From NCBI RefSeq assembly GCF_044792175.1, contig NZ_CP172866.1: a stretch of 64,000 bases of DNA, one strand, 5' to 3'. This document shows positions 3,609 through 59,865 of this stretch, one piece after another. This DNA is from Corallococcus coralloides. Lineage in GTDB: Bacteria; Myxococcota; Myxococcia; Myxococcales; Myxococcaceae. Numbering within the stretch: the first letter of the stretch is position 1; each line of letters starts with the position of its first letter. The translations under genes were made by a program, and so were the position numbers. A model generated the notes under the pieces. That model had not been told where the DNA came from. It saw only the letters and a list, made by a program, of their open reading frames with translations, and did no database searches.

Positions 3609-3625
3609 ACCCCCGGAGACGCTCC

Positions 3626-7334: not shown

Positions 7335-7838
7335 TCAGCGGCCCCGGCGCCGCGAGGGCGCGCGGCGCGGCGGCTCCTTCGGGGGCTCCTGCGGGGTCGG
7401 AGGCAGGCGCGACAGCAACTGCTCCAACTGGCGCTCCACCTCCTGGCGCCACAGGGACTGCGTGCGCGCCTGGACGCGCTGGTGCTCGTGGATGAGCGCG
7501 AGCGCGTCCAGGATGGCCTCGTTGAACTCCACCTGGCGCCGGAGCGCCTCGTTGATGAAGGGCTGGAACGCCAGCCGGAAGGCGCGCTTGGCCATCACCA
7601 GCGCGGGCCCCACCAGGGGTCGGTGGGACGAAGGCGGATCCGCGTAGCGCGCGTCGCGCTTCAGCCGCGCGCCCTCCAGGAACGGGGGCCACGCGGCGTT
7701 GATGGCCGGGGCCTGGGTGGCGGCGAGGCGCCGGCGCAGCGCCTCCACCTTCTCGGGCTCCGGCGTGGGCAGCCGCGCCAGGGACTCCAGCACCGCCTCC
7801 ACCGTGGGGTCGCGGGTGATGAGGTCCTCAGCGCGCAT
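7335..7838 (-). CDS. Hypothetical protein
   Basis: The amino-acid composition is balanced, unlike the overlapping R/P-rich shadow ORFs. Its start overlaps the stop of the GT4 gene by 11 nt. I recognise no domain. Confidence 0.4.
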   Translation of the reverse strand: MRAEDLITRDPTVEAVLESLARLPTPEPEKVEALRRRLAATQAPAINAAWPPFLEGARLKRDARYADPPSSHRPLVGPALVMAKRAFRLAFQPFINEALRRQVEFNEAILDALALIHEHQRVQARTQSLWRQEVERQLEQLLSRLPPTPQEPPKEPPRRAPSRRRGR

Positions 7839-9474
7839 GCGGGTGTCCTCCCACGTCCAGCTCCCTCGCCAGCTCCGCCGCGAGCGACACCAGGTCGCGC
7901 CCCGGGGTGAGCTCCCACAGCTTCTTTCCCAGGACCTGCTTGACGCCCGCGTCCGGCGCGCGGCGGGCCTCCCAGACGCCCGCGACGCACGCCTCCGGCG
8001 GCAGCCGCGACACGGTCCTCCGGGCGACCTCCTCTCCGGCGCCCGCGAACAGCAGCGGCCCGGAGGCGCACCGCACGCCCGTCTCCAGCGACGACGACGG
8101 CGGGCTGACCCCCTCCAACCCGAAGGAGGGCTCGTCCGGCGTGAAGCGCCGCACCCGCGTCACGCCCTCGTGCTCGTCGCGCGGGGCCAACTGGAGGGGC
8201 AGCACCTGCCGGCGCACCGTCCACAGGCTCGCGTCCGGAAGCCGGTCCACCACCGCGCGCGCCAGCCGGGACATGGGCGCGTCCGGCGCGGCGTCGAAGC
8301 CGGGGCACACGACGGTGGCGGCGGGTCCGGCGGGAGGGCGGGCGTGGGGCGCGGCTCCCTGGAGGAAGGGCGTGAGCGCCTCGCGTACGCGCTGGGCCAC
8401 GGCCTGCTGGTCCAGGGACGCCAGGCGCTGGCGCTGCGCCTCCACCACCCGCGAGCGCAGGGCGGGGTCGCGCTCCAGCACCGCCAGCAGCCCCGCCACC
8501 TGCGCGGGGTCGTCCGACAGCGTGGTGAGGCCCGCGCCGCCCATGGTCTCCGGCACCGCCGCGGCGCCGTAGGCCACCACCGGCACGCCCCGGTACATGG
8601 CCTCCAGCAGCGGCACGCCGAAGCCCTCGTGGCGGCTCATGGAGAGGTACGCGGTGGCGGAGGCGAAGCACGCGGACAACTGGGCGGCGTCCACCCGCCC
8701 CAGGAACACCACGCGATCCGGGCCCAGTTGCTCGCGCAGCGCCAGCACGGACGCGTCATAGGGCGCGCTGCTGTAGAGCGTCCCCGCCACCAGCAGCCGG
8801 CTCCGGGGCTGGTACAGGCGCTGGTAGGCGGTGAAGACGCGCAGCACGTCCTCCAGCCGCTTGCTGGGCACGGTGCGGCCCACGAAGAGCACGTTGGCGC
8901 ACCCGTCCGCCATCTGCTCGCGCAGGGCCGCGTCCGGCGCCACGTTGAACGCGTTCCAGTCCACCGCGAAGGGCAGGACGCTCGCGTCCGGGTAGCCCGC
9001 GGCGGACAGCTCCTCCACGCTGAAGTGCGAGTAGGCCCAGGCGTGCGTCACGTGCTCGCGGAGCTGGAGCAGCTCCTCGCGCGCCAGCATGCAGCCGCGG
9101 GCGACGTGGCGGTCCGTGCCCTCGAAGAACCGCTCGGGCGTGACGTTGTGGTACAGCAGCGCCTTGCGCCCCTTGGCCTTGGCCACCAGCGGCACCAGCC
9201 TCGACTCGAAGCTGTGGTGGACGAGCAGCGCGGTGTCCCGGCCCGCGTCGCGGGCGTAGTCCAGGGCGGGGCGCACCTCGTCGCGGCACGCCTCGTCCCA
9301 CTGCTCCGCGTAGATCTCCGACGCGTACCCCCACCCGCGCAGCAGGTCGCGCAGGTAGCGCACCTGGTTGCCCACGGCGTCGCCCCAGGCCAGCCGCGGC
9401 ACGAGCTGGTGGACCGCTCCGGCGCTCGAGGACGCGGTCCCTCGCTTGCTGTTCCAGAGGCTCACGTTGGGCAA
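7828..9474 (-). CDS. GT4 family glycosyltransferase (GT-B, Glycos_transf_1)
   Basis: The C-terminal half has SMSRHEGFGVPLLEAMYRGVPVVAYGAAAVPETMG, the GT4 E-x7-E signature. The gene is transcribed divergently from rfbB. Confidence 0.8.
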   Translation of the reverse strand: MPNVSLWNSKRGTASSSAGAVHQLVPRLAWGDAVGNQVRYLRDLLRGWGYASEIYAEQWDEACRDEVRPALDYARDAGRDTALLVHHSFESRLVPLVAKAKGRKALLYHNVTPERFFEGTDRHVARGCMLAREELLQLREHVTHAWAYSHFSVEELSAAGYPDASVLPFAVDWNAFNVAPDAALREQMADGCANVLFVGRTVPSKRLEDVLRVFTAYQRLYQPRSRLLVAGTLYSSAPYDASVLALREQLGPDRVVFLGRVDAAQLSACFASATAYLSMSRHEGFGVPLLEAMYRGVPVVAYGAAAVPETMGGAGLTTLSDDPAQVAGLLAVLERDPALRSRVVEAQRQRLASLDQQAVAQRVREALTPFLQGAAPHARPPAGPAATVVCPGFDAAPDAPMSRLARAVVDRLPDASLWTVRRQVLPLQLAPRDEHEGVTRVRRFTPDEPSFGLEGVSPPSSSLETGVRCASGPLLFAGAGEEVARRTVSRLPPEACVAGVWEARRAPDAGVKQVLGKKLWELTPGRDLVSLAAELARELDVGGHPHAR

Positions 9475-14234: not shown

Positions 14235-14278
14235 GCGGCGGGCGGTCCTCGAAAGGGGGCCGCCCGTCGTCATTTTCA
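14235..14278 (+). terminator. Putative intrinsic terminator between convergent genes
   Basis: The stem cggcgggcgg/ccgcccgtcg spans about 14236-14245 and 14260-14269, with a tcctcgaaaggggg loop, and is followed by cattttc. Confidence 0.3.
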
Positions 14279-14761
14279 CGGCAGGGGGGAGGTGACGTAG
14301 TCCACCCCGTCGGAGTGGCAGCCGTGACAGGTCGAGTGGGCGCGGCCGTAGTAGTTCCGGGTGTAGTCGGGGCCGAAGCCCTCGTAGAAGATCCAGGTGG
14401 CCTTGCCGGGACCTTCCGCGACCTTCACGTCCAGCGCGTGGCCCCGGAGCGTCTTCCCGTCGTCCTCGAAGAGCTCCTTCACCAGGATGCTGCCCACGGG
14501 ATGCGTGGCGTTGCCGTCGCGCAGCGACCGCGCGACGACGTCGTTGAAGAACACGCGGACCTTGCTGCCGTGGGGCGCGCGTGTGTCGTGCACGGAGGGC
14601 TCCGCGAGCCAGGAGGTGTACTGGCCCGAGCGGACGAAGGCGGTGATGCCGGTCTCGGACGTGTCGATGCCCTGGACGACGCCGAGGCCCTCGTCCACGG
14701 AGGAGGAGGGGCCGCAGGCGGCGGAGAACAGGACCATGAGCGGCAGGAGGGGGGCGCGCAT
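14276..14761 (-). CDS. Lipoprotein with a single CXXCH motif (possible c-type haem-binding protein)
   Basis: The signal peptide carries the lipobox FSAAC. The protein has the motif STCHGCHSDG (CXXCH). Confidence 0.55.
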   Translation of the reverse strand: MRAPLLPLMVLFSAACGPSSSVDEGLGVVQGIDTSETGITAFVRSGQYTSWLAEPSVHDTRAPHGSKVRVFFNDVVARSLRDGNATHPVGSILVKELFEDDGKTLRGHALDVKVAEGPGKATWIFYEGFGPDYTRNYYGRAHSTCHGCHSDGVDYVTSPLP

Positions 14762-14809
14762 GGTCAGGACTACGCCGGGGGCGAGGGGGCGGTTACAGCC
14801 GGGCCCGGC

Positions 14810-15430
14810 TCAGCGGGGCGCGTAGTTGTGGCTCAGGTCGAAGACGAGCGTCTTCACGATGGGCGGGATGGAGAGCTCGATGCGGCCCCGGTTCAGGTCT
14901 CCGTGGGTGACCTGGTAGGAGAGGCCGCCGAACTCGTCATCGAAGGTGTAGTTGTCGTTGTCGAAGATGGAGATTTCGAGCGGGTAGCGCAGCAGGTTGG
15001 AGGTGATGATCTGGCAGCCGCCGGTGCGCCATTCGGGATCCCAGCTCTCGCTTTCCTCGGTGCGGGTGCGCTCGGGAGCGGAGGGGCAGTTCATCTCCAC
15101 GACGACGTCCGGCGGGGAGCCGTCGGAGTCCCAGTCCTCGCCCGTGTCCGGGTCGACGTCCGCGATGGTGGCGTACCGGGGCTGGATGAAGGTGCGCATC
15201 ACGCCCACGTAGCAGGTGTGCTGGTCGAGCCGGCAGACACTGCCCTCCGCGCAGGGTTCACAGACGCTGCCATCGGGGCCGCATTCCGAGTCGCTCCGGA
15301 ACGAGATGCACTCGTTGAACGAGGAGCAGCACCCGTCCGCGCAGTTCTCCGGGGTGCAGTCGTAGGGACCGCAGGCGGGGAGCCACAGCGCGCACATCAG
15401 GATGAACATCCAACCGCCGAGGACTTTCAT
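14810..15430 (-). CDS. Cys-rich secreted protein, paralog A of a two-member family in this window
   Basis: The protein has a signal peptide and about 12 Cys in its first 70 residues (CGPYDCTPENCADGCCSSFNEC...). Its conserved block DWDSDGSPPDVVVEMNCPSAP is shared with the protein encoded at 19500..20159. Confidence 0.6.
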   Translation of the reverse strand: MKVLGGWMFILMCALWLPACGPYDCTPENCADGCCSSFNECISFRSDSECGPDGSVCEPCAEGSVCRLDQHTCYVGVMRTFIQPRYATIADVDPDTGEDWDSDGSPPDVVVEMNCPSAPERTRTEESESWDPEWRTGGCQIITSNLLRYPLEISIFDNDNYTFDDEFGGLSYQVTHGDLNRGRIELSIPPIVKTLVFDLSHNYAPR

Positions 15431-15453
15431 GAGCGCGGTGAACGCTACCCGCT

Positions 15454-15960: not shown

Positions 15961-16044
15961 GGCCGTGCTCCTGGGGATGCTGCTTGCAGTATGCAAGGGG
16001 TCGAAATACGGTTCAACCCATTGTGAAACGCAAGGGGTCGGACG

Positions 16045-16704: not shown

Positions 16705-16711
16705 GCGAGGC

Positions 16712-18490
16712 TCAGGGCCGCGGGGGAGGGGAGACCGCGGCCATGATGTATCGGGGCAGGAGCTCCTCGCGGAACTTCCGCCAGAGGGAGACGTGGTTGT
16801 AGTTGCCGGCGGTGAAGAGCACGACGAGGTCCAGCTCCGGGACGACCATCACGAGCTGGCCACCGTTCCCGCTGGCTTCGTACTGTGAATACACCCGGTC
16901 ACCGACGCGAAGCTCATGGCGCCACCACGTGTAGCCATAGGTTCGCCCGTCTGGCATCGTCGCCTGTTTCGCGACGGAGCGTTCCACCCAGCGCTGGCTG
17001 ACCACGCGCTTCCCGTTCCAGGTGCCGCCGGAGAGGTAGAGCTGCCCGAGCTTCAGGGCGTCACGAGGGCGCATGTAGATGCCGCCACCCAGGTACTGCT
17101 CACCGTCGGGCATGAGGTCCAGGTGGTAGCCGCGCATCTGGAGGGGCGTGGCGACGTTCTTCGTGAAGAACTCGGGGATCCAGGTACGGGTGGTGTTGCG
17201 GAGGACGCCGCCGAGGAGGTTGATGTTCGCGGAGCAGTACACGGCCTTCCCGCCGCCGGGAGCGCGGACCATGGGGAGGTCCAGCGTGTACTTGTACCAA
17301 TCCGGTACGGAGTCCTCGAGCCGGTCCTCGTTGCCGGGTGACTCTGGATTGTCGTCGTCACAGGCCAGGCCCGTCGCCATGGTCATCAGGTGCGCGACGG
17401 TGACCTTGCGCTTGCGAGCGTCCAGGTTGGAGAGCTTGCCCTTGTACTCAGGGAAGAGTGAGACGACGGGCGTGTCCACGGTGAACGGGGCGCCCTGGTC
17501 CAGGGCGATGCCGATGAGCAGGGACGCATAGGACTTGGAGGAGGACCGCAGGTCGTGGGGACGCTCCTTGTCGAAGCCCTGGAAGTACTCTTCGGCGATG
17601 AGCTTTCCGTGGCGCGCGATGAGCAGGCCCTGGATGGCGGGCACGGACTCCGGGCTCGGTTCCTGGTCGAGGATGCGCTGCACGAGCTGCTGGAGCGGCT
17701 GGACGTCCATGCCGACGTCCGCAGGGGAGGCCGTGGTCCAGCCATCGTCCTCCGCGATGGGCTTCTGGTAGGCGTAGGGGCCAGGAGCAGGAGTGCGGGA
17801 GTAGAGCCCCACGGCCTGCGAGCGGTCCCGACGAGTGAAGTCGAAGCTCGTGTCAAAGGGAGGGTAGGGGAGAGACAGCCGTCCGGACTGCTCGTCGAAC
17901 GTGCCTTCAATCTGGGTGTCACTCTTGGTGTCCGTGAGCCGGACCGTGCGGTCCTGAAGCTCCACACGGAACAGCATCCGGTTGCCGAAGTTCCGCTCCG
18001 GGTTGCGAATGAACGCCGTCACGGAGCCGTCAGGCTGCTTCTGGACGACAAGATACAGCGAGAACCGGTCCTCCAGCGGAGCCACGTTGCCGCGCCAGAC
18101 ACCCGGCTGGAGCGCGCGCAGTTCCACGGGAGAGGCGAACTTCATGCCGCTCATGAGCACACGCGGTTGGATCCAGTGACCCGTGATGCTCTGACTGTTC
18201 TCCATCAACGTCGCTCGGAGTTCTCCTCCTGGGAAGACGACGGACACCTTGCAGCCCTCGAACCGGGCAGGAACATCGAATCCGCCGATGCGCGCGCGCC
18301 AAGTGTCCCCATGCCGGACCAGCGTCAGCTCACCCTGAACCTGAGGCCCAAGAATACGCTCACTGCCCCAGATGCCCACCAACGCCTCCGCAGACATGGG
18401 GACAGCGCCGACATGGAAAGGCAGCAGCGCCAACAGGAGCCCGATGAGCCTTCGGGAGCTGGAGTGCACGGTGGATGCGTGGAGGGTCAT
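16712..18490 (-). CDS. Secreted serine hydrolase, beta-lactamase/transpeptidase-like fold with an N-terminal extra domain
   Basis: The protein has a signal peptide. SSSKSY (an S-x-x-K active-site motif) lies at about residue 316 in a beta-lactamase-like C-terminal half, and YAN lies downstream. Confidence 0.8.
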   Translation of the reverse strand: MTLHASTVHSSSRRLIGLLLALLPFHVGAVPMSAEALVGIWGSERILGPQVQGELTLVRHGDTWRARIGGFDVPARFEGCKVSVVFPGGELRATLMENSQSITGHWIQPRVLMSGMKFASPVELRALQPGVWRGNVAPLEDRFSLYLVVQKQPDGSVTAFIRNPERNFGNRMLFRVELQDRTVRLTDTKSDTQIEGTFDEQSGRLSLPYPPFDTSFDFTRRDRSQAVGLYSRTPAPGPYAYQKPIAEDDGWTTASPADVGMDVQPLQQLVQRILDQEPSPESVPAIQGLLIARHGKLIAEEYFQGFDKERPHDLRSSSKSYASLLIGIALDQGAPFTVDTPVVSLFPEYKGKLSNLDARKRKVTVAHLMTMATGLACDDDNPESPGNEDRLEDSVPDWYKYTLDLPMVRAPGGGKAVYCSANINLLGGVLRNTTRTWIPEFFTKNVATPLQMRGYHLDLMPDGEQYLGGGIYMRPRDALKLGQLYLSGGTWNGKRVVSQRWVERSVAKQATMPDGRTYGYTWWRHELRVGDRVYSQYEASGNGGQLVMVVPELDLVVLFTAGNYNHVSLWRKFREELLPRYIMAAVSPPPRP

Positions 18491-18525
18491 CGAATGACTT
18501 TGGTTCTGGATGTTATAGCCCGGTC

Positions 18526-19512
18526 ATGCGATCCGACCTGGCAGAACGCTGGCTCACACCCGATGGTCAGCGCCGGCGCGAGCGCTTGATCGCCTCGGGA
18601 TTTCAAGGACCCTGGCGTGAAGTCCTCAAGGGCTTTCCGGGAGCAGATGCATTGGGACCCCACGTGGGGGATCTCCGAGGCATCGACCTCGCTCAGGAAG
18701 AGCTACCGGGCGCGGAGTTCGTTCATGTTCGGCTCGATGGCGCCCGCCTGGATGACTGCGGGCTCAACGAGGCGCGGCTCGACTTCACCACGCTGTCTGG
18801 TGCCTCGCTGACCTGGGCGCGCATGGAGCGCGCCAGCCTGATGGCTTGCGTCGCGATGGCCACGTGCTGGGACGATGCTTCCTTGGAAGGGGCAGTCCTC
18901 ACGGCTTCAAACCTGGTTCACGGCTCATTCCGTCGCGCCCGACTTCAGGGCGCCCGTTTGACCGCAGCGACGTTGATGAAGGCGGACCTGCGCTGCGCTG
19001 ATCTCCGAGGCGCGGAGTTGTCCTTCTGTGACATGGAGGAAGCGTGCGTCGCGGGTGTTCGCACGGATTGGCCTCGCACCTATGGGCGGGCAGGGCTGGG
19101 CAATGCGGACGTGAGCTATTACCGGGATCATGGCGGGTACCCATCATTCATGGATGCCATCCTGCTCGACCCGGGTATGCGCGCGCTCCGATGGTTGGAC
19201 AGGAAGGAAATCCTGATGCATGTGGAAGCAGCGGTCGAGATGAGCCCCGCGGTGGATGCTGAAATCCTCGCGCTCCTCCTGGATCCAGACTTTGAGGCAG
19301 CGGTGCGCTTACGACTCGAGGCCCCGGATGAGCTGCGGTACGAGGCTGCCTCCAGCCTCATGTGGGCTCTTGGCTTGGATCAAAGCAAGAATGTGTGGGG
19401 ACGCTCAGGGGTGTCGATTTGTCAGCGCTGGATGGCAAACCTCCGCAAGAACATGGCCGCCAGCATCCAACAACGCTGGCGGCGGGCCGAGGTGTCCGTC
19501 TATTCGGCGTAG
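18526..19512 (+). CDS. Pentapeptide-repeat protein
   Basis: The protein has runs of A(D/N)L-type pentapeptides (TLSGASLTWARMERASLMACVAMATCWDDASLEGAVLTASNLVHGSFRRARLQGARLTAATLMKADLRCADLRGAEL). I chose the internal ATG at 18526. Confidence 0.7.
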   Translation: MRSDLAERWLTPDGQRRRERLIASGFQGPWREVLKGFPGADALGPHVGDLRGIDLAQEELPGAEFVHVRLDGARLDDCGLNEARLDFTTLSGASLTWARMERASLMACVAMATCWDDASLEGAVLTASNLVHGSFRRARLQGARLTAATLMKADLRCADLRGAELSFCDMEEACVAGVRTDWPRTYGRAGLGNADVSYYRDHGGYPSFMDAILLDPGMRALRWLDRKEILMHVEAAVEMSPAVDAEILALLLDPDFEAAVRLRLEAPDELRYEAASSLMWALGLDQSKNVWGRSGVSICQRWMANLRKNMAASIQQRWRRAEVSVYSA

Positions 19513-20159
19513 TATGTGGTGATCTGGAGGGCCAAGGAGAGCAACGCACCGGAACTCGTGAACTCCACGACGCCACGGTCAATGTCGGCTCGGGTCATCT
19601 GATACTGCGCAGACGCAATCGGGTCGTCAAAGAGGGTGTCAACGTCAATGACGGTGAACTGGATGGGGGCCGAAAGCAGATCGGTACTCAGGACGTCGCA
19701 TGCCCCCTGCGTCCACGTAGGGGTGAAGCTTTCAACTTCCTCCGAAGGGGGCGCAGGCTGTGCGTTGGGACAGGACAGCTTGACCACGACATCCGGCGGC
19801 GAGCCATCTACGTCCCAGTCACTGTTGTCAGCAGGATCCTGCGGAGCGATCGTGGCGCGCAGGGGCTGGATCTTCGTGCGAATGGTGGGGGTGTAGCACT
19901 GTTGCTGTGACGGATGGCAGATGGTCCCGGTCGCGCACTTCGAGCATTTGGTGCCGGTAACACCGCACGCGTCGTTGGTACGAACTTCGACGCACTGGTT
20001 CGTGGTCGGATCGCAGCAGCCTGCACAATTCGCTGCAGTACAGATTTCTTCGAGTGGCGGGTTCTCCGTGATGGGGCCTGAGCTTGAGTCTTCGGGCCCA
20101 CAGCCTGCTAGCAAGAGAATCGACGTCAGCCCAAGAAGAATTCGGTTGTTGAATGTCAT
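19500..20159 (-). CDS. Cys-rich lipoprotein, paralog B (lipobox LLAGC)
   Basis: The protein starts MTFNNRILLGLTSILLLAGCG. It has a Cys-rich N-terminal region and the DWDVDGSPPDVVVKLSCPNAQ block shared with 14810..15430. It lies 6 nt downstream of the SIR2-like gene on the same strand and is lower in GC. Confidence 0.6.
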   Translation of the reverse strand: MTFNNRILLGLTSILLLAGCGPEDSSSGPITENPPLEEICTAANCAGCCDPTTNQCVEVRTNDACGVTGTKCSKCATGTICHPSQQQCYTPTIRTKIQPLRATIAPQDPADNSDWDVDGSPPDVVVKLSCPNAQPAPPSEEVESFTPTWTQGACDVLSTDLLSAPIQFTVIDVDTLFDDPIASAQYQMTRADIDRGVVEFTSSGALLSLALQITTYYAE

Positions 20160-20165: not shown

Positions 20166-21893
20166 TTAGTTGAGGTGGAGAACCAACACGCGGGTGCCTT
20201 TGTCCATGCGAACTTCAGCGGTGGCCATCCGAGTCACAGGAATGCTCGCGACCTGCGCCCTTCTGTTGCTGGGCGTGGGAGTGATGACGATGGGCGCAGG
20301 GTTCGGATACCCCAGGGCCGTGATGGTTGGGGCATCCGCGTAGCCCACGAGGTACAGGGATCCATCCGAGAGCGCGCGATGAAGCTCAATTCCCTCCTGG
20401 ATGAGGCCATAGATGGGTGTATCCGCGCTGTAGGTGGGAACGGTGCTCATCGGTACAAATGCGTAGCGTCCCCTGGGAAGCTGCGAGACGCGAGCCCCAC
20501 GCTCGGCGTCCGAAGCGGCGACGACCTGATGCTGCTGGCGAACGCTTCTGAGCGTGCTCGCGAGTGCCGGGACCGGAGCAGTCGTCGGGGGCTGCGGCTG
20601 GACAGGTCTCAGATTCCGCGGAGTCTGAACGACAAAGACGTCATTGTTGACGCTTTTGCTCGGGGATGGCCAGACCGCTGCCACGCCGCCAGCAATCAGC
20701 GCGGCAGCAGCAAACGGCAGGATTCTCCCGGAGCCTGATTTCGAAGGGCTGGCTGTGCCGTCCGTCTTCGGAGCGGAACGGGAAGCGGGACGATCCGAAG
20801 CGGAGGGCACAGGCTCGGGTGGCTTCGCCGCACTTGAGTGGGGCGAGGTCGCCGGCCCAGGGGCTCTGGTGGCCGAGGCGATTGGGATGGATGGCGGCGG
20901 TGGCTGTCGGACTGTGCTTGGAGGGGGCGACTGCGGGGCAACGGATGCGCCAAAGTGTTGACGCAGTTCAGGGAAGAATTTGTGGCAATCGATTCCGCCA
21001 TAACAACGAAGCCCTTTGTTGCCTCGTAAATTGGCAACCCTGCTGAAGAGCGTCGGATTACAGGCCTCGATTATAGCGTCATTCTTCTCGTAGAAACCCC
21101 AGAGGATGTCGACATCCTTGTGCCTGTCGACGTCAATCGCCGCGAGTGTCTGGGTGAAGACATCATCCCATCCGCCGTATCCGATAACGACAAGTGTGTG
21201 GCTTTGAAGGATCTGGATCAGTTCCGCAGAGACGAGTTTGCGCTCGCGACCAAGCTGGATGCCAGTGTGCAACGTAGGCGAGTCATGCCAGTAGCCGTGA
21301 AGGTGGATGATGTGCGTGGATTTGGAAGAGGAAGGAACCGTCTGCCCGAACGGGCTGTCGTGAGTCACGATCGTGCGATGGAAATCACCGCCAGCCACCT
21401 TCACCGATGCTGAGATGAGGGGATCAAAATTCGTGGTCAAGACGGGGCCAAACGTATCGGCTCTCTCCACCAGCAATCTTCCGAGATGCTCCGTCGCGGG
21501 AGGTAAGGCCCATCCGCCATAATCCAGATCCAGTTCGTCGTCAGTCGCTGCTCCATCGCGTTGGCGGTCCACCCGTGCGCGAAGCACAGCCTCTCGAACA
21601 ACCTTCTCGGAGACTTTCTTGTCCTCAAGGCCTTGCACGAAATGCATGGCCCATTGGTATCTGTTCTCTTTGGTGTGCTCGCGCTCCGTGTCGAATCTCG
21701 CCTTGAATCCGGTCGGGACGTGCTCGCGGATGAGATCCAGCATCGCCTCTACCCCAGGCACCTGGGGGGCGTCGGCTCGTTCCTGCGTCGACAAGGGGGA
21801 ACCGACCAGAAACGCGATTTTCCGGCTTTTGGCGGCAGTGATGACAGCGTTGGGGAGAGCATCCTTGGGATGCAGGAACGAATAGGAACTCAT
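20166..21893 (-). CDS. SIR2-like (SIR2_2/DHS-like NAD-binding) domain protein with Pro/Ser-rich linker, one TM helix and C-terminal domain
   Basis: The N-terminal 300 aa carry the SIR2_2 hallmarks FLVGSPLS, TTNFDPLIS, IIHLHGYW and VVIGYGGWDD. A low-complexity P/S/A linker follows, then a hydrophobic helix ILPFAAAALIAGGVAAVW and a roughly 160-aa C-terminal region. The gene is low in GC (about 48-55%). Confidence 0.75.
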   Translation of the reverse strand: MSSYSFLHPKDALPNAVITAAKSRKIAFLVGSPLSTQERADAPQVPGVEAMLDLIREHVPTGFKARFDTEREHTKENRYQWAMHFVQGLEDKKVSEKVVREAVLRARVDRQRDGAATDDELDLDYGGWALPPATEHLGRLLVERADTFGPVLTTNFDPLISASVKVAGGDFHRTIVTHDSPFGQTVPSSSKSTHIIHLHGYWHDSPTLHTGIQLGRERKLVSAELIQILQSHTLVVIGYGGWDDVFTQTLAAIDVDRHKDVDILWGFYEKNDAIIEACNPTLFSRVANLRGNKGLRCYGGIDCHKFFPELRQHFGASVAPQSPPPSTVRQPPPPSIPIASATRAPGPATSPHSSAAKPPEPVPSASDRPASRSAPKTDGTASPSKSGSGRILPFAAAALIAGGVAAVWPSPSKSVNNDVFVVQTPRNLRPVQPQPPTTAPVPALASTLRSVRQQHQVVAASDAERGARVSQLPRGRYAFVPMSTVPTYSADTPIYGLIQEGIELHRALSDGSLYLVGYADAPTITALGYPNPAPIVITPTPSNRRAQVASIPVTRMATAEVRMDKGTRVLVLHLN

Positions 21894-21932: not shown

Positions 21933-23498
21933 TCATGCGGCTCGCTCACTTGGTCGACCTTGTTCCTCCTCTTGGAGTGCCAATGTCTTCCGGTATTCCG
22001 CAGCCTCGGCCGCCCGGGTCAGTTCAAACTCACCGTGATGCTTGCGGACTGCCTCCGCGATCTCATCCAGGCCGACGCGGAAGAACTCCTTTCGCTCATT
22101 GATGCGGTTGACTCGCCGGTTCGCGAAGGCCTTGTGCAGGGCGTTCTCCAGGGCAGGGGCGTCCGAGGTCCGGATGATGGCGTGGACATCGAACTCGAAC
22201 GGCACCGAGGCATCTCCAAGTTCATCGATGCGGTCCTGGGGGACCAATCGTCGGGTCATCCCCAGCTTGAACACGCCCTCGCCGAAGGAACCAATATTGG
22301 AGATGACGTAGACGTGCCCGGTGCGGGTGAGCTGTGCCTGGGAGATGGCGCGCTGCTTCTCCATGTCTTCTGCCACACGGCGCTCCAGCTCCGCGATGCG
22401 CTCCATCAGCTTCTGCTGCTCCGAGCCCTTCGCCTGCTCGTAGTCCGCCCGCGCCTTGGCCAGCGCTTCTGCATCGCGCTTCGCTTCGCGCTCCGCTTCC
22501 AGCTTCGCCTTCTCCAACTCGCGTTGGGCGGCTTCCTCCTCACGCATCTGCTCCCGGATCCGGCGCTGCTCGTCACGCTCCTGCTGCACCTTCTCCTCGT
22601 ACTCGTACGCGAGCATCAGCTCCTCGACCTTGAGCTTGACGTAGCGCCTGGCGATGACGCACTGCTGGATCTCCGCGAGACCATTGATGGCGGCGGCTGC
22701 CTTCTCGATGCGCGTCTCCATGGCCTTGACGTTCTTGTAGGACACCTTCGCTACACACGCGTCCGCCTCGCCATTGAAGGCCCGGAGCATCAGCTTCAAG
22801 GTCCGCTCAATCTGCTTCTTGCCTTCCGCCTTGCTTCCATTCACTTCCCACTGAATGGAGCACGTGGCGGCTTCCTTGTTCTTCAGCATCTGCTTCTGAG
22901 CGTCGCGGATCTTCTCCAGCCGGTCCTCGTACTCCTTGACCGACGCCAGCGCGTACACCGGTTTGTAGAAGCCGAAGGAGAGCAGGACCTCCTCTTCCTC
23001 CAGTGCCTTCAACTCGGCCCTCAGGCGGGCGATGCCTGACTCCAGGTTGGTCCGCTCAGCGTTCGCCTGCTTTCGACGGGCTTCTGCCTCCTCCATGGCG
23101 CGCGTCGCGCTTTGCGTCGTCCGGCTCGTCTCTTCGCGGAGCCGGTTCAACTCCGCTTTCGCTCGGCCCTGCTCAGCGGCGATGGCCTGCTCAACGTCCG
23201 CTTTTGCCCGGGCAAGCTCGGTCTCTACCCGCTTCCGCTCCGCCGCCAGTGCACTGTCCGCTTCGCTCCGTGCCTTCGCCAAATCGTCCTGGACCCGCTT
23301 CTGTTCCGCGGCCATCGCGGTGGTCGCGTCCGTGCGGGCCCGCGTCAACTCCTCCGCGACCCGGCGCCGTTCGGCCTCCAGGTCCAGGATGGGCTTGAAT
23401 CGTTCCTGGACGGCTTTGAGCCGGCTCTGTGTCCGCAGCCACAAGCCAAGGAGCAACAGGCCCAGAATGCCCAGGCCAATGGCGATGATCGTTGTCAT
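21933..23498 (-). CDS. Membrane-anchored coiled-coil protein with DUF4041 and C-terminal T5orf172 (GIY-YIG-like) domain
   Basis: I chose the internal ATG at 23498, which has AGGAGA 6 nt upstream and avoids overlap with the helicase gene. The N-terminus has a TM helix (TTIIAIGLGILGLLLLGLWL), and about 200 aa of E/R/A-rich coiled coil follow. The C-terminus reads GHVYVISNIGSFGEGVFKLGMTRRLVPQDRIDELGDASVPFEFDVHAIIRTSDAPALENALHKAF...EFF, the T5orf172/MUG113 signature. Confidence 0.75.
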   Translation of the reverse strand: MTTIIAIGLGILGLLLLGLWLRTQSRLKAVQERFKPILDLEAERRRVAEELTRARTDATTAMAAEQKRVQDDLAKARSEADSALAAERKRVETELARAKADVEQAIAAEQGRAKAELNRLREETSRTTQSATRAMEEAEARRKQANAERTNLESGIARLRAELKALEEEEVLLSFGFYKPVYALASVKEYEDRLEKIRDAQKQMLKNKEAATCSIQWEVNGSKAEGKKQIERTLKLMLRAFNGEADACVAKVSYKNVKAMETRIEKAAAAINGLAEIQQCVIARRYVKLKVEELMLAYEYEEKVQQERDEQRRIREQMREEEAAQRELEKAKLEAEREAKRDAEALAKARADYEQAKGSEQQKLMERIAELERRVAEDMEKQRAISQAQLTRTGHVYVISNIGSFGEGVFKLGMTRRLVPQDRIDELGDASVPFEFDVHAIIRTSDAPALENALHKAFANRRVNRINERKEFFRVGLDEIAEAVRKHHGEFELTRAAEAAEYRKTLALQEEEQGRPSERAA

Positions 23499-23511
23499 GG
23501 ATGTCTCCTGT

Positions 23512-26500
23512 TCAGGCGCTGACGGCCCGCATCTGATGCTCCACCGGGGACTCTTCACGCACGACGGCTGGCAGCTCAGCCGCCTCCTCCCGAAGGAGCT
23601 CCTCGACGCGCGCGACGATCCGGGCGACCTCTTCTGAAGGCGAGCGGAACCAGTCCGTGGACCAGATGCGGTGAAGCTTCCACCCCAGGCCCTTCAACAC
23701 CTGGTCCCGGAGCCGGTCCCGGTCCCGCGCGGAACGCGACGAGTGGTACCGCTCGCCGTCACACTCGACACCGAGGATGTACCGGCCTGGTTGCTGGGGA
23801 TGCCGGAGGGCCATGTCGATGAAGTAGCCCGCAACGCCTACCTGCGGAACCACCTCGAAGCCCCGCGCCGCGAGCGCCTTCGCGACGGCGATTTCGAAGT
23901 CGGAATCCGGTGGACGGCCGCTCCCCACGCCGTGCGCCACCTTCTCTCCCTTGGCTTCGGACAGGTACCGTTGCAGGACGCGCATCCCACGGGGACTGCT
24001 CTCCTGGACCTTGAGCTGTGACGGGTCGAAGGACGCGAACACCGTCAGTGCACACCGCGCCCTCGTGAAGAGGACGTTCAACCGGCGGTATCCGTCCGCC
24101 TGGTTGATGGGCCCGAAGTTCATCCGGAAGCGCTCGTTCTTGTCGGGACCGAACGTGACCGACACGAAGATGGCGTCGCGCTCGTCGCCTTGCACGTTCT
24201 CCAGGTTCTTCACGTCGAAGGGCATGGGTGACTTCTCCCACTTCGCCAGGAAGGCTCGGAGGGTCGCGTCGTTCTTCTCCTCGGCAGTCACCAGGTCGTC
24301 GATGAGATCCCGCTGCTTCGAATTCAGCGTGACGACCAACAGGCTCTGCTCAGGACGTGTCCGCGCGTGCTCCTTCACCTTCGCCAGCACTTCGCGGGCT
24401 TCGGGGACGTTTCGGTTGGACTCGTACAGTCCTCCGTCCACTTTGTGGAAGCGCAGCCCCAAACCTTCCAGTTGCTCACCTGGTGCAGGGAAGGTGATGA
24501 GGTCGCCGTTGTAGAACTCACGATTGCTGAAGGCGATGAGCGAGGGGTGACGTGAACGGTAATGCCAGCGCAGCATGCGCATGGGGAACCGCTCCGCCGC
24601 CGCCGTGAGGATGCTCTCTGAATCCTCCAGGAAGGACGGGCCCTGAGCCTCGTCTCCCGCCTCGTCGTTGGACTCTGTGTCCTCCTGTTCCATCTGGGCG
24701 AAGAAGCTGGTGGGAGGGAGTTGCTCCGGGTCGCCCACTACCACCAACTGTCTCCCTCGCGCGATGGCGCCCAGCGCATCTTCGGGACGCATCTGGCTGG
24801 CCTCGTCCATCACGACCAGGTCGAAGGTCAACTGGCCGGCGGGCAGGTACTGGGCGACCGACTGCGGACCCATCATGAAACACGGCATCAGCGTCTGGAG
24901 CGCACTGCCGGCACGGGCGACCAGTTCACGAATGGGGAGGTGCCGCTGCTTCTTTCCCAACTCGTGCCGCAGAAGATGGGTCTCCGTCATACCCGCCACT
25001 TTCGCCGAGGACACACCCGGAGGAACCGGACGCTGGCTGAGTTGACGTGCCAGGTATCGGCCCTGCCTTTCGATGCAATGCGTGTCCAGGCGTGCGAACT
25101 CCTCTCTCTGGGAGGCATGAACGGCGCCCGTGAACTGGTCGAGCTCGGGTTGGTCTCGCAGGATGGCTTCCGCCAGGGAGCGGAAGAAGACAGCGTCGAA
25201 GGCCGCGACCAGCCGTTCCGGCTCCAGGCCCGGACGTGTGTCGACGCGCTCCAGGAACCCAGCGGTGCTCCGCGCTCGCGCGACGGCACGCCGCTGCCGT
25301 TGATACGCGCACCAGGCTGGAAGCGTCGCGGACTGGCTTCGGGCCTGGCGCAGTCGCAAGACCGTCGATTGGAGCGGCTTCTCGGCGGCGAGATCCTCCC
25401 AGGTGCCCTGGGCCATCCTTCCCAGCTCCCGGGCTTGGGTTGCGGACTGTCTGTAGGCACTGAGGGCTGTCTCCAATTCGTTCGTGATGGCGAGCAGGTC
25501 CGCGTGCCTTCGTGGCGTGTCCTCTCGTAGCAGCCACTCCGCCAGCCCTTCAGGGAGCGGCGCCGCGAGGAGGTCATCAACATGTCGGAGGATGCTTCGG
25601 GGACCCGCTAGGGAGGTTTTCCGCCCCTGGTAGGCCACCCCTGGCAGGGTCGCCGCGGAAGCGTGCGCTTCCAGCCGGTCTGCGGCTTCGCACGCTTCAC
25701 GCACCCGGCGCAGTTGTCCCTGGAGTTGGGAGAGGGTCAGGGACGGCGGGGCATCTCCCTTCCGTGCCCAGTTCAGGACCTGGCTCAGGTGCTTCAGCAG
25801 GGCGTCGAGGCTGTCCTGGGCCTTTCCGCAGGACTCGGTGTTCCAGGGGGCGCTCGGCAGCCCCATGCGCGTCGAGGCTTCTTGCACGAAAGTGCTTACG
25901 TCTCGGACTTGGGACAGTTCTTCGCTCTTCGCGCGGACCATCGCCAGGATCTCGCGCCAATGGCTCGGGGAACGCTCCAACACTGCTCGGCGTAGCTCCA
26001 AACCTCGCTCACCCATGGGGAGGATCAATGCGTCGATGTTCCGGTATGCGTCCAACCACGAAAGGATTCGGTCGAAGCGTGTCTCGACCCCCTGGAAGCG
26101 GGCGCCAAGGGTCGCTTTCAAGGTCGCGTCCTCCTGGAACCGCTCCCGTGCCGCGTAATGAGCCAGCAGGTCGTTGTAGCCCTGAACCAGTACGGGCCTT
26201 GTTGGACGTACGCCATGTGCCATGGCCTGGAAGTCCCGCCGCGCGGCGCGCCAAGCGCTCGAGAGCCAGGGGATGAATGGCGCGGTTGAAACCGCAACCG
26301 CATGGGACTTGAGCGTCGCGAGGGGAGGAACGAGTTCGGGCATGAAGCGCACCGCGAGCGCCCGTGCCTGATCTTTCAATTCCGTACAGGTGCTGTCAGC
26401 CTTCCGAAGTGTCTCCTCGGCTTCGCGTTCGATCCAGCACGGGTCCCGCCACTCCAAAGTGGTGTCGTCCAGGGCGGCCATCGCCTCGACGACGCGGGCG

Positions 26501-28710
26501 AAAGACTGGAGCTGCTGGGGCGTCCAGCGCGTGACGTCGACTTCCAGGCGGGAGGCCACGTCGGCCGCGAACCGGCGAGCCTGCGCCAGGATTCGAGCAG
26601 CGGCCTCCACCGCTTCATGCGCGCGCGTCAGTGTCACGAGCGTGGTGTCAGGCGAGAGCAGACGCAGGGCCATGTCGAGGACGGCTTCCGCGCCGCGCAG
26701 CGCGGACGCGGTCAGGTCTTCCTGGGCACGCCAGCCTGCCTCCAACCCCGCCCACCGGGCCTGGACCGCTTCAATGGCATCAAGCAGGGCTCGTAATCCC
26801 TCTCTCTGCGTGGAATCGAGCAGGGCAGGGACCAGCGTCGCGGGAGTCCCTTCTGGAAGCCGTGGCAGGACTCGGACGTTGGAGATCAGCGCATCCACCG
26901 CGAGTGCGCTCGAGCTGGGCGTGACGCCCGTGCGGACGGTGAAGGCCGCCAGCGCCTTCTCCAGGAGCAGCGCGGACTCCTCCCAGGTGGCGATACGCTG
27001 AACGAGTGTCTGACGGTCCTTGTCGGTCAGCGCATCGTTCGTCACACCCGCCCAGGGGTGGGCACTGAGGATGGGCGCGACGCGGCGAACATCCCCAAGC
27101 TGCGCCGCGAGACTCCGAACCGCGTCGCGAACCTCCGATAGCGCATGGGTAGACATGCCTTCGGCGCCCTCGAAGCGGAGGCCTTCCAGCTCCACGACCG
27201 CGTCTCCCAGTTCCGATTCCGCGCGACTGACCTTCCAGAACACGTCATGCGGTGACATGCCGAGTGTCCCGAACGGCTTGTGCATTCGCTCGGTATGCGC
27301 GCGCAGGATGCCCGCCGCGTTCGAGACCTGTTCGGTGAGCGGGCGGGGAGCGGTCGCGCTCGCATCCAGGTTGAGTCGGCGACGCAGGTCCTCCATGAAC
27401 TGCTGTTTCTGGGTCTTGTGGCTGTGCAACTCCAGGCAGAACTCGCCGAGCCCCGCATGCTGGAGGCGGCGTGAGACGACCTCCAACGCCGCCAACTTCT
27501 GCGTGACGAACAGCACGGTCTTGCCCGCCGCCAACGCCGCGCCAATGAGGTTGGTGATGGTCTGTGATTTCCCGGTGCCGGGCGGCCCTTGCACCACCAG
27601 ATTCTCGCCCCGGAGCACGTCCACCAACACGCTGTGCTGGCTGCTGTCCGCGTCCGTGATGAGTGGCGGCGGATTGACCTCCTGCGAGTCCAAATCGTAG
27701 ACCTCGCTCCGGCGCTCCCGGCTGCCCCCGCCACCTCCGCCAGGTTCGTTCGCCTCCGCCTGTCCTCCCATCAGCGTCCGGACGAGCGGGTTCGCCAGCA
27801 TGGGGCTGTTCTGAGGCCAGCGGCTGGGCTCCAGGTCCCGCCACATCAGGAGCCGCCCGAAGGACAGGAGCGTCAGGGTCACCTGCCGCTCCAGGCTCCA
27901 GCCAGGGCGCAGGCCTTTGAGCAGCGCCGTCACCTTGTCGAAGTACGCCTCCAGCCCCTCCTCCGCGGAGAAGGCCGGCAGCGTGATGCCGAACTCCTGC
28001 CGCAGCTTCTCCTGGAGCGTGAGGTTCGAGTCGATGGACTCGCCTTCATTGTAGTCCACCTCGTAGGAGTGGACCTGCGTCTCCGGGTGGGCTTGGCCGC
28101 GTTTGAGGCTCACAGGCATGAGCACGAGTGGAGCGCTGCGAGGCTTCTCCTGCCGCGTGTCGCCGGACTCGTACCAGCGCAGGAACCCGAAGGCGAAGTG
28201 GAGCAGATTGGCCCCGGTCTCCTGGATGGCCGTTTGCGCGAGGCCCTGGAGTCGGTGCAGGTGGCTCTCCAGATCCTCCGGGAAGTACAACGTCTGGAGG
28301 TGGCGATCCTGGTGCTTGCGAGGATTGCTGCCGCTCTCTGCCGGGACCGCCTTGGGCAGCTCATACCGGGTATCGATGCCCAGCTTCTTCGCTTGTTGAA
28401 GCAGCAGCTTCTGCCGAGCGTCCTTGCTTGGGGCCTCCTCCGTCGTCATCGAAAACACCACCGTCGCGGCGGCGGGATCGAAGTCCTCCTCTTCCTCGGA
28501 GGCTTGCTCCGGTGGCATCACCGGAAGGAACGTGAGCGCGCGGTGGTTGCTCAGGCGCTCGAAGACGACACCTGGCAGTTCATCCACAATGCGCAGCGAC
28601 GTCCGGGCCGTGTGCTTGAAGTTGAGGAGTCGGTTGGTTGCGCTCAAATCCAGCAACCGGGTGCGTTGCCGCTGAAGCTCTTTCAGCAGGACCGAGTCGT
28701 GCGGATTCAT
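23512..28710 (-). CDS. Giant SF1 (Upf1-like, AAA_11/AAA_12) helicase with DUF4011-like N-terminus and C-terminal DUF559/Vsr-like endonuclease (REase_MTES/DUF3320) domain
   Basis: The start is the ATG at 28710 (MNPHDSVLLKELQRQRTRLLDLSATNRLLNF). The earlier ORF start at 28869 would add a low-complexity extension. The Walker A motif is VVQGPPGTGKSQTITNLI. The helicase has QLVVVGDPEQLPPT (motif III-like) and NVLFTRARCALTVF (motif VI). The C-terminus reads GYFIDMAL...ILGVECDGERYHSSRSARDRDRLRDQVLKGLGWKLHRIWSTDWF, the DUF559/Vsr-fold endonuclease motif. Confidence 0.85.
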   Translation of the reverse strand: MNPHDSVLLKELQRQRTRLLDLSATNRLLNFKHTARTSLRIVDELPGVVFERLSNHRALTFLPVMPPEQASEEEEDFDPAAATVVFSMTTEEAPSKDARQKLLLQQAKKLGIDTRYELPKAVPAESGSNPRKHQDRHLQTLYFPEDLESHLHRLQGLAQTAIQETGANLLHFAFGFLRWYESGDTRQEKPRSAPLVLMPVSLKRGQAHPETQVHSYEVDYNEGESIDSNLTLQEKLRQEFGITLPAFSAEEGLEAYFDKVTALLKGLRPGWSLERQVTLTLLSFGRLLMWRDLEPSRWPQNSPMLANPLVRTLMGGQAEANEPGGGGGGSRERRSEVYDLDSQEVNPPPLITDADSSQHSVLVDVLRGENLVVQGPPGTGKSQTITNLIGAALAAGKTVLFVTQKLAALEVVSRRLQHAGLGEFCLELHSHKTQKQQFMEDLRRRLNLDASATAPRPLTEQVSNAAGILRAHTERMHKPFGTLGMSPHDVFWKVSRAESELGDAVVELEGLRFEGAEGMSTHALSEVRDAVRSLAAQLGDVRRVAPILSAHPWAGVTNDALTDKDRQTLVQRIATWEESALLLEKALAAFTVRTGVTPSSSALAVDALISNVRVLPRLPEGTPATLVPALLDSTQREGLRALLDAIEAVQARWAGLEAGWRAQEDLTASALRGAEAVLDMALRLLSPDTTLVTLTRAHEAVEAAARILAQARRFAADVASRLEVDVTRWTPQQLQSFARVVEAMAALDDTTLEWRDPCWIEREAEETLRKADSTCTELKDQARALAVRFMPELVPPLATLKSHAVAVSTAPFIPWLSSAWRAARRDFQAMAHGVRPTRPVLVQGYNDLLAHYAARERFQEDATLKATLGARFQGVETRFDRILSWLDAYRNIDALILPMGERGLELRRAVLERSPSHWREILAMVRAKSEELSQVRDVSTFVQEASTRMGLPSAPWNTESCGKAQDSLDALLKHLSQVLNWARKGDAPPSLTLSQLQGQLRRVREACEAADRLEAHASAATLPGVAYQGRKTSLAGPRSILRHVDDLLAAPLPEGLAEWLLREDTPRRHADLLAITNELETALSAYRQSATQARELGRMAQGTWEDLAAEKPLQSTVLRLRQARSQSATLPAWCAYQRQRRAVARARSTAGFLERVDTRPGLEPERLVAAFDAVFFRSLAEAILRDQPELDQFTGAVHASQREEFARLDTHCIERQGRYLARQLSQRPVPPGVSSAKVAGMTETHLLRHELGKKQRHLPIRELVARAGSALQTLMPCFMMGPQSVAQYLPAGQLTFDLVVMDEASQMRPEDALGAIARGRQLVVVGDPEQLPPTSFFAQMEQEDTESNDEAGDEAQGPSFLEDSESILTAAAERFPMRMLRWHYRSRHPSLIAFSNREFYNGDLITFPAPGEQLEGLGLRFHKVDGGLYESNRNVPEAREVLAKVKEHARTRPEQSLLVVTLNSKQRDLIDDLVTAEEKNDATLRAFLAKWEKSPMPFDVKNLENVQGDERDAIFVSVTFGPDKNERFRMNFGPINQADGYRRLNVLFTRARCALTVFASFDPSQLKVQESSPRGMRVLQRYLSEAKGEKVAHGVGSGRPPDSDFEIAVAKALAARGFEVVPQVGVAGYFIDMALRHPQQPGRYILGVECDGERYHSSRSARDRDRLRDQVLKGLGWKLHRIWSTDWFRSPSEEVARIVARVEELLREEAAELPAVVREESPVEHQMRAVSA

Positions 28711-28814
28711 GGAGGTGCCCCCCGGGTCGTCATGGGTGGGACGACCTGGCACCCAGGTTCTGGCGCACTCCTCGCCGCGGTTGCATCCCCCGTGAGGGTG
28801 ATTGACACCCACGC

Positions 28815-28857
28815 GAAAACGCCGCCTCGCTTCCGGAGGACCGGAAACGGGCGGCGT
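28815..28857 (-). terminator. Rho-independent terminator of the ABC-F gene
   Basis: The plus strand 28819-28857 reads aa-gccgcc-tcgc-ttccgg-agga-ccggaa-acg-ggcggc-gt. It has an outer stem of about 8 bp and an inner stem of 6 bp. On the minus-strand RNA the hairpin is followed by UUUUCGCG. Confidence 0.45.
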
Positions 28858-28882
28858 AGGCACTGCCAAGAGTAGCGAAGGA

Positions 28883-31887
<3,005 letters not shown>

Positions 31888-40666: not shown

Positions 40667-40795
40667 CGATGAAACCCCGATCCGCGAGGGCTGGCGCGAC
40701 CACGACCGTCGGCCCGCCGCTCGACGTGAACACTCCGGGTTGCGGATTATCAGTGCGCCGGGTGCTGGGGCAATGCGTTAAAGAATCCGGTGTGG

Positions 40796-50769: not shown

Positions 50770-50786
50770 GTCAGTGGGCTTTCGTT

Positions 50787-51617: not shown

Positions 51618-51677
51618 GACGACTCCTTGGATTGCGGGCGCGCCCCCGCTCTGGAGCTTCCGCGCGCCCGGACGACC

Positions 51678-58130: not shown

Positions 58131-58139
58131 GGAGTCCCC

Positions 58140-58643: not shown

Positions 58644-58665
58644 AGCGCGCAAGGATCCAGACACC

Positions 58666-59238: not shown

Positions 59239-59256
59239 CCCGGGAGAGCGCGCACC

Positions 59257-59847: not shown

Positions 59848-59865
59848 CGCCAAGGGGCGCCGCGC

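Follow-up and report, generated by a model that had tools for sequence, protein, structure and literature searches.

SIR2-domain and C2-lipoprotein genes of Corallococcus coralloides: a candidate two-gene, envelope-sensing abortive-infection module

The 64,000-nucleotide (nt) stretch of the Corallococcus coralloides contig NZ_CP172866.1 (assembly GCF_044792175.1) analysed here, referred to below as the window, carries on its minus strand a pair of closely spaced genes encoding a SIR2-family protein and a cysteine-rich lipoprotein, which we consider as a candidate immune module. The SIR2 gene occupies the open reading frame (ORF) 20166..21893, with its stop codon at 20166-20168, and its product of 575 amino acids (aa) is 100% identical to a C. 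coralloides protein listed by NCBI as 'SIR2 family protein'. The lipoprotein gene (219 aa; 19500..20159) begins with an ATG at 20159, 6 nt beyond the SIR2 stop codon and on the same strand, as the initial annotation of the locus had reported; the sub-coordinates given below for both genes were confirmed by translation. In homologues of the SIR2 protein the order of parts is conserved: a SIR2 domain, a variable Pro/Ser/Ala linker, a hydrophobic segment, a Pro-rich spacer and a C-terminal domain (CTD). Orthologues from other Corallococcus genomes are 47-83% identical to the window protein and three metagenomic proteins (P0011-P0013), with identical domain order, are 31-42% identical. That full-length homologues (31-83% identity) retain the entire architecture excludes a chance ORF.

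The N-terminal part of the protein (aa 1-310; 20964..21893, minus strand) is a predicted NADase domain (NAD, nicotinamide adenine dinucleotide) of the SIR2_2, or SIRim, type, as judged from a Pfam match, homology and catalytic residues. SIR2-like motifs had been noticed here at the outset and the assignment stands: the Pfam family SIR2_2 (PF13289) is matched over aa 151-253 with 31.1 bits (gathering cut-off 24.5), the motifs TTNFD, HLHGYW and VIGYGGWDD lie at aa 153-157, 197-202 and 236-244, and both catalytic residues, Asn155 (nt 21429-21431) and His199 (nt 21297-21299), are present and are invariant across an alignment of 13 sequences. All 120 homologues among the matches listed carry PF13289. 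SIR2_2 is the only Pfam domain in the 575-aa protein, and no signal peptide was found at its N-terminus. Human FAM118B is the only relative of solved structure found by sequence (E=0.003 with the full-length family profile), and N155 and H199 align with the FAM118B residues that we identified by spacing as N163 and H206. Mutation of FAM118B N163 and H206 leads to loss of NAD processing, and ThsA, Avs5 and the FAM118 sirtuins all require higher-order (filament) assembly for activity (PMC12700824). The window domain presumably adopts the Rossmann-type sirtuin fold. In a 5.8-billion-protein collection its nearest relatives, with 35-40% identity over the whole ~310 aa, lie within SIR2-NB-ARC/NACHT-TPR proteins; in PADLOC these STAND-type relatives match SIR2 models only and none of the AVAST models. 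The window gene itself gives weak PADLOC matches (E 1e-8 or weaker) to pAgo-, Aga- and PDC-S65-associated SIR2 models, all of them spanning the SIR2 core alone (aa 143-270). These sequence relationships place the enzyme, a predicted NADase, in the immunity-type SIR2_2 branch.

Beyond the enzyme domain, the initial annotation described about 90 residues of Pro/Ser/Ala low complexity followed by one strong hydrophobic helix, and both were recovered. Pro makes up 21% of residues 311-405, Ala 19% and Ser 17%; the linker proper, defined by composition and predicted to be cytoplasmic, comprises aa 311-390 (80 aa; 20724..20963, minus strand), and its length and sequence differ between homologues. It leads, with Arg390 as its last residue, into a predicted single transmembrane (TM) helix at aa 391-409 (20667..20723, minus strand), ILPFAAAALIAGGVAAVWP, which by Kyte-Doolittle hydropathy is the top hydrophobic 19-mer of the protein (mean 1.87). 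The position of this segment is kept in homologues and its sequence is not: when we surveyed 42 CTD-family members whose CTD is preceded by more than 150 residues, all except one had a hydrophobic 17-19-mer (Kyte-Doolittle up to 2.6) located 27-99 residues before the CTD, the sole exception being P0248, in which the hydrophobic segment is N-terminal. Lysine and arginine residues, counted over 15 flanking positions on each side of the segment in 35 long members, number 110 on the effector side versus 64 on the CTD side, a positive-inside pattern that fits an N-in/C-out orientation.

The helix is followed by 166 residues, made up of a Pro-rich spacer of 36 aa (aa 410-445; 20559..20666, minus strand), predicted to be periplasmic and ranging from 27 to 99 aa across the CTD family, and a folded domain of 130 aa. 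The C-terminal domain of about 160 aa proposed earlier is therefore real, with the proviso that its folded part is shorter than supposed and the remainder is spacer. Hydropathy, charge bias and context lead us to predict a single TM helix with the C-terminal domain facing outwards. The N-terminal enzyme would lie in the cytoplasm, given that a signal peptide is absent and that its substrates are NAD+ or nucleotides. Three relatives of the CTD (P0127, P0162 and P0206) consist of two to three tandem CTDs behind a lipobox or a cleavable signal peptide, with no enzyme domain, and such proteins support an extracytoplasmic location for the CTD. The possibility of an extracytoplasmic domain, raised when the gene was first described, has thus gained support as a prediction from the conserved position of the hydrophobic segment, the charge bias, the missing signal peptide, the exported relatives and the pairing with an exported, disulfide-rich lipoprotein that is described below.

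The CTD itself (aa 446-575; 20169..20558, minus strand) is an alpha+beta domain, predicted to be extracytoplasmic. A profile hidden Markov model (HMM) of seven sequences was used for an exhaustive HMMER search of 1.84 billion representatives, which yielded 499 proteins at E<=1e-3, of which 80 lie at E<=1e-10; the window ORF scores E=6e-58, and the best 150 of the 499 hits were inspected. The invariant positions are R452 and E503, with G475, H505 and G517 close to invariant; the hallmark motifs are LPxGxYGF and FEVH(K/R). No match to the domain was found in Pfam (E<=5), NCBIfam or PHROGs, and no solved structural relative was found. Some homologues are leaderless stand-alone proteins, among them those encoded at L023 5001..5408 (P0175) and L025 5001..5465 (P0166), and their contexts include, for example, a position beside an HTH_37 regulator and a 394-aa uncharacterised protein; such homologues may reveal an ancestral ligand or function of the fold.

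The product of the second gene comprises a signal peptide ending in the lipobox LLLAGC with Cys20 (20100-20159), a 19-aa spacer, a ten-cysteine module (aa 40-88; 19896-20042) and a C-terminal C2 domain (aa 90-219; 19503-19892), all on the minus strand. The cysteine pattern of the module is C-x4-C-x2-CC-x6-C-x8-C-x6-C-x2-C-x5-C-x6-C, and all 12 cysteines of the protein are conserved in homologues (12/12). The C-terminal domain is modelled with a predicted local distance difference test (pLDDT) score above 90, and in that model it is an eight-stranded C2 beta-sandwich. Pfam C2 gives no hit for this protein and only 20.2 bits for a paralogue, below the cut-off of 22; more generally, the lipoprotein has no match in Pfam (E<=5), NCBIfam or PHROGs. 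The protein keeps the Asp clusters through which other C2 domains bind Ca2+ and lipid, and this conservation hints, suggestively only, at Ca2+-dependent phospholipid binding. In Myxococcus xanthus, a Lys at position +2 is an inner-membrane retention signal; the Gly found at +2 would, with low confidence, point to outer-membrane targeting.

A second C2 lipoprotein gene is present in the window at 14810..15430 (minus strand); its product is Cys-rich and 40% identical to that of the first, and the gene has a G+C content at third codon positions (GC3) of 0.92. It is followed by a gene for a 161-aa lipoprotein (14276..14761, minus strand) with a CHGCH motif resembling the CxxCH haem-binding motif. 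At L007 and L008, from C. sicarius and C. praedator, the pair formed by the paralogue and the CHGCH lipoprotein comes directly after the SIR2 and lipoprotein genes, an arrangement that suggests tandem duplication at one locus.

Evidence that the two genes of the pair belong together comes from their joint occurrence elsewhere. Related loci were sought with the lipoprotein alignment as an anchor. A lipoprotein gene lies directly downstream at every effector-TM-CTD locus examined, in nine independent lineages, which we define as lipoprotein-paired loci with mutual CTD identity of 43% or less. The two genes are separated by 0-140 nt or overlap by 4 nt. SIR2-type pairs are found in the window and at L001, L002/L003, L006, L007 and L008, the last two with two tandem lipoprotein copies; the other paired loci are of the TIR type (L016, L028), the PNP type (L020/L021, L030), the LmuA/FMO type (L022) and the Metallophos type (L027). 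The early suggestion that the lipoprotein could be a partner of the SIR2 protein is therefore strongly supported, the gene following that of the CTD protein whatever the N-terminal enzyme. No lipoprotein gene was found beside the soluble CTD homologues at L023 and L025, nor beside the SIR2-TM gene of L004, whose C-terminal domain is a different one. When metagenomes were scanned for the lipoprotein pattern, the only hits were distant C2 proteins or copies lacking a CTD gene, and no new paired loci came to light. At L016 (3625..4870), the TIR-TM-CTD gene of a long-read metagenome-assembled genome contains a frameshift between TIR domain and linker, probably a sequencing error rather than the mark of a pseudogene.

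Further clues to the nature of the module come from the range of enzymes attached to the CTD. A tally of the N-terminal domains of 49 family members gave PNP_UDP_1 (seven), SIR2_2 (six), TIR (five) and a flavin adenine dinucleotide (FAD)-oxidoreductase-like domain (four), with Metallophos (two) and EAD5 plus PNP (one) being rarer. The PADLOC models hit by these domains are the PN-superfamily effector of CBASS and PDC-M60C for PNP, the CBASS endonuclease effector and PDC-S60 for Metallophos, and LmuA, the effector of Lamassu, for the FAD-oxidoreductase-like domain (E=9e-91). By these matches, the CTD-linked N-terminal domains are bona fide defence-effector types. CTDs attached to different effectors are up to 0.43 identical (0.41-0.43 for example) and those attached to SIR2 domains share 0.25-0.35 identity with one another; as similarity across effectors matches that within the SIR2 group, effectors have been exchanged on a constant chassis of TM-CTD and lipoprotein. 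What was first seen as an unusual topology for a SIR2 protein is confirmed as an architecture, then, and is no one-off oddity: it belongs to a modular family with at least five interchangeable effector domains. One SIR2-linker-TM protein (P0014; L004 4005..5654) ends in an unrelated 109-aa C-terminal domain and its gene adjoins one for a phage-type integrase, from which it follows that the SIR2-TM scaffold can bear other external domains.

The setting of the gene pair in the window is that of a defence island. The pair lies within a stretch of ~10 kb with a lower GC content (0.60-0.65) than the window as a whole (~0.71), and the GC3 of the two genes is 0.68-0.70, versus 0.85-0.96 for core genes on the 5' side (13160-18490). 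The gene immediately upstream (21933..23558, minus strand) encodes a PD-Lambda-1 homologue, with a coiled coil, DUF4041 and T5orf172/MUG113, that PADLOC recognises with E=1e-153. Between the end of this gene and the SIR2 gene on the same strand lie 39 nt, so the two may be co-transcribed. Further upstream, 23512..28869 (minus strand) encodes a 1785-aa helicase-nuclease with DUF4011, AAA_11/AAA_12 helicase and MTES_1575/DUF559 nuclease domains, matched in PADLOC by PDC-S37 (score 1267) and Hhe (E=2e-285); the 3' end of this gene overlaps the annotated start of the next by 47 nt. The island is bordered on one side by genes for an ABC-F ATPase and a queuine tRNA-ribosyltransferase (TGT) and on the other by a beta-lactamase-like gene, GST and HxlR. 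At related loci, the neighbours include HSDR_N, PemK, Imm52, DUF2380, CXXCG and WHH-like genes. Two loci may be singled out, L027, where a WHH-motif protein encoded together with a CXXCG-type protein (3041..4256) resembles a myxobacterial polymorphic toxin/immunity pair, and L020, where DUF2380, Gmx_para_CXXCG and Imm52 genes (2882..4318 and 7569..8336) resemble polymorphic toxin/immunity genes. The gene pair thus sits in a conflict or defence-island context.

What might such a module do? We are fairly confident that it serves in conflict or immunity, with the TM-CTD part and the lipoprotein as its constant, non-effector portion. Going further, we lean, by no great weight of probability, towards the view that the gene pair is the SIR2 version of a hitherto undescribed two-gene, envelope-sensing abortive-infection module, whose function and topology we infer from the evidence above. 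The SIR2 protein would be a bitopic inner-membrane protein with a cytoplasmic NADase and an extracytoplasmic CTD, and the CTD and the exported C2 lipoprotein would together form a periplasmic sensor or tripwire. Disturbance of the envelope, for which a phage that adsorbs, penetrates with its tail or injects its DNA is the most plausible cause, would alter the interaction of the CTD with the lipoprotein or that of the C2 domain with the membrane. Clustering of the CTD-TM parts could then bring about assembly of the cytoplasmic SIR2 domains and hence their activation, as in ThsA, Avs5 and FAM118, and the active enzyme would deplete NAD+ so that the infected cell is arrested or killed. That the module represents a family of bacterial outside-in innate immune receptors, in which the CTD and a Ca2+/lipid-binding C2 lipoprotein would sense envelope breach or phage contact across the periplasm and, through the single TM helix, switch on whichever effector is fused to the CTD, is a proposal that we advance tentatively and with limited confidence.

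Several observations weigh against this scheme. The trigger, be it phage or something else, is pure inference. Around one third of the CTD hits inspected are leaderless proteins of 130-170 aa with no TM segment and with unrelated neighbourhoods, and since so many hits are small and leaderless the CTD is not intrinsically extracytoplasmic. The helix of the Corallococcus protein is Ala/Gly-rich and, at 1.87, of moderate hydropathy. Stand-alone members of the lipoprotein family with no CTD gene nearby exist in the window (14810..15430) and at L009-L015 and L032, Corallococcus orthologues of the window copy being among them; the C2 lipoprotein family extends beyond the CTD module. Finally, a mirror-tree comparison of CTD and lipoprotein gives r=0.83 over all loci and falls to r=0.23 (p=0.09) without the close Corallococcus loci, and we do not count it as evidence.

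Four other explanations have to be considered. The strongest of these keeps the architecture as described and alters the trigger: the module would respond to a non-viral conflict, either attack by or contact with another cell, or would execute developmental cell death in the social Myxococcota. Kin discrimination via outer-membrane exchange, predation, and toxins of the contact-dependent or polymorphic kind would be examples, and the lipoprotein could be a shareable 'self' factor. Myxobacterial kin do exchange outer-membrane lipoproteins. In keeping with this idea, all full-length lipoprotein-linked loci with a named source come from Myxococcota (Corallococcus and an uncultured deltaproteobacterium), and related loci adjoin polymorphic-toxin/immunity genes (Imm52, DUF2380, Gmx_para_CXXCG and WHH-like). 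The direct neighbours in the window, however, are two recognised anti-phage systems, and every effector type found in the family is also used by anti-phage systems. We consider a non-viral trigger unlikely, whilst allowing it a real chance.

According to the next explanation there is no sensing of the outside at all. The TM-CTD part and the lipoprotein would simply anchor or localise the effector at the envelope, or else the lipoprotein would inhibit it constitutively, as in a toxin-antitoxin-like 'addiction' pair, and the effector would be activated by a cue inside the cytoplasm or when its partner is lost. Strict pairing with 4-nt overlaps or short gaps is indeed reminiscent of toxin-antidote operons, the effectors are potentially lethal, being NAD- or nucleotide-degrading, and the soluble CTD homologues speak for CTD roles unrelated to the envelope. 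Against this, an antidote on the other side of the membrane could act solely through the CTD, which would in itself be transmembrane signalling; the SIR2 protein has no cytoplasmic sensor domain, just a low-complexity linker; and a C2 domain that is conserved and rich in Asp is more suggestive of regulated lipid binding than of simple capping. An anchor or antidote of this kind strikes us as distinctly unlikely.

Were the hydrophobic segment not to span the membrane, the CTD would be a cytoplasmic regulator and the adjacency of the lipoprotein gene would reflect co-regulation without contact. The composition and moderate hydropathy of the Corallococcus segment would accommodate such an arrangement, as would the many small and leaderless CTD homologues. 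It is made highly improbable by the like position of hydrophobic 17-19-mers (up to 2.6) of unconserved sequence in 41/42 long members, by a charge bias that fits N-in, by the existence of CTD proteins with signal peptide or lipobox and by the exported protein encoded alongside at each of the nine independent loci examined. The last explanation, that of an ordinary SIR2 housekeeping enzyme (a protein deacylase or ADP-ribosyltransferase) anchored in the membrane by chance, is compatible with an NCBI label that reads merely 'SIR2 family protein' and is scarcely credible, the domain being of the SIR2_2 branch rather than a canonical sirtuin, its gene having low GC3 and an island location, and SIR2 being interchangeable with TIR, PNP, metallophosphatase and LmuA-type domains on the same scaffold.

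How, then, does the proposed envelope-sensing module compare with systems already described? The SIR2 protein resembles SIR2-STAND (Avs5-like) proteins in having an N-terminal SIR2 effector, with the same motifs, joined to a sensor or switch module. Where those proteins have an NTPase and repeats, which provide the sensor and oligomerisation switch in the closest SIR2 relatives, the window protein has linker, TM helix and CTD, and it is this part that would take their place; any sensing would therefore be extracytoplasmic. The same core, with the Asn of TTN(F/Y)D and the His of H-x-H-G, is common to ThsA, DSR1/DSR2, SIR2-HerA, SIR2-APAZ/pAgo (SPARSA) and FAM118A/B. The window protein has none of the SLOG, Macro, HerA, Argonaute or HEAT-like sensor domains or neighbours of those systems, and none of ThsA, DSR, SIR2-HerA, SPARSA or FAM118 has been described with a TM helix, an external domain and a lipoprotein partner.

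Each of the established SIR2 systems was considered as an identity for the gene and rejected. Avs5/SIR2-STAND fails for want of a STAND P-loop NTPase or repeats, aa 311-575 being linker, TM helix and CTD; Thoeris ThsA for want of a SLOG or Macro domain, a ThsB (TIR) gene or a PADLOC Ths hit; and DSR1/DSR2, SIR2-HerA and SIR2-pAgo for want of a large sensor at the C-terminus or of a HerA or Argonaute gene as neighbour. With the defining partner domains and genes of ThsA, DSR, SIR2-HerA and Avs5 all absent, the protein is none of these, and the departure from the ThsA, DSR and SIR2-HerA architectures to which the initial annotation drew attention is borne out. 'System 4' of Kaur et al. (from the Aravind laboratory) was likewise rejected as a match, since it consists of an EACC1 TM protein and a caspase and has no relation to the module.

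The closest parallels in concept lie among membrane-associated systems. Zorya (ZorAB), Kiwa (KwaAB) and SNIPE each have a component in the inner membrane, the periplasmic part of which is proposed to sense phage entry and to switch on a cytoplasmic effector (PMC13434031). The CTD module shares this concept, but the gene pair has no component homologous to theirs; it differs, too, in that an NAD- or nucleotide-degrading effector is fused directly to the receptor and in its partner, a C2 lipoprotein in place of a motor or DNA-binding protein. By analogy only, Toll-like and IL-1 receptors may also be mentioned, where an external sensor, one TM helix and a cytoplasmic TIR domain act through clustering, the counterparts here being cytoplasmic SIR2 or, at L016 and L028 (TIR-TM-CTD), TIR domains; in the CTD module the effector comes first and the sensor last, the reverse of the order in those receptors, and the external domains are unrelated, so that no homology is implied. 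The C2 domain differs from those of the eukaryotic type (cPLA2, synaptotagmin/E-Syt, Munc13, perforin) in being bacterial, exported and lipid-anchored, and in following a ten-cysteine module.

We found no model for the module in PADLOC-DB 2.0.0, Pfam, NCBIfam or PHROGs, with no PADLOC hit for the lipoprotein or CTD and matches to the first gene limited to the SIR2 core, and no description of it in the searchable literature, including the Aravind-laboratory surveys of effector-swapping conflict systems. Immune modules with exchangeable effectors are known already, as is membrane-associated defence; what is new is the combination of an external CTD and a C2 lipoprotein, one TM helix, and fused NADase or nucleotidase effectors. 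To our knowledge, SIR2, TIR and PNP defence effectors have so far been linked to cytoplasmic triggers (STAND NTPases, cyclic-nucleotide receptors, Argonautes and helicases). Should the proposed envelope-sensing module prove correct, NAD-depletion immunity could be set off by events outside the cytoplasm, as early as the first step of infection or attack, and outside-in activation, if proven, would be conceptually new for this type of immunity. The module would also add a sensor fold not seen before, a function for C2 domains in bacteria, where they would serve immunity for the first time, and a functional analogue of the Toll-like receptors, TIR versions included, and would offer a compact two-gene system in which to study transmembrane activation of sirtuin and TIR NADases. 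The CTD profile is a ready tool with which to find hundreds more members.

A number of lesser features of the window complete the picture. A terminator-like hairpin with a 12-bp stem, including 8 G-C pairs, is located 17 nt past the lipoprotein stop codon (19456..19483, minus strand); it was identified by consensus match only, four such sites being found in the region against 2.2 expected, and it is likely to end the transcription unit. Convergent with the lipoprotein gene, and overlapping it by 13 nt, is a gene for a 345-aa pentapeptide-repeat protein (18475..19512, plus strand; GC3 0.71), within whose 3' end the hairpin of the minus-strand operon falls. The ABC-F ATPase ORF (28883..30718, minus strand) and the TGT ORF (30502..31887, plus strand) overlap by ~217 nt, and one of their start codons has probably been set too far upstream. 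Further dips in GC content occur at 40001..42000, 50001..52000 and 58001..60000 (0.656-0.683 versus ~0.72), and these three might be other acquired segments.

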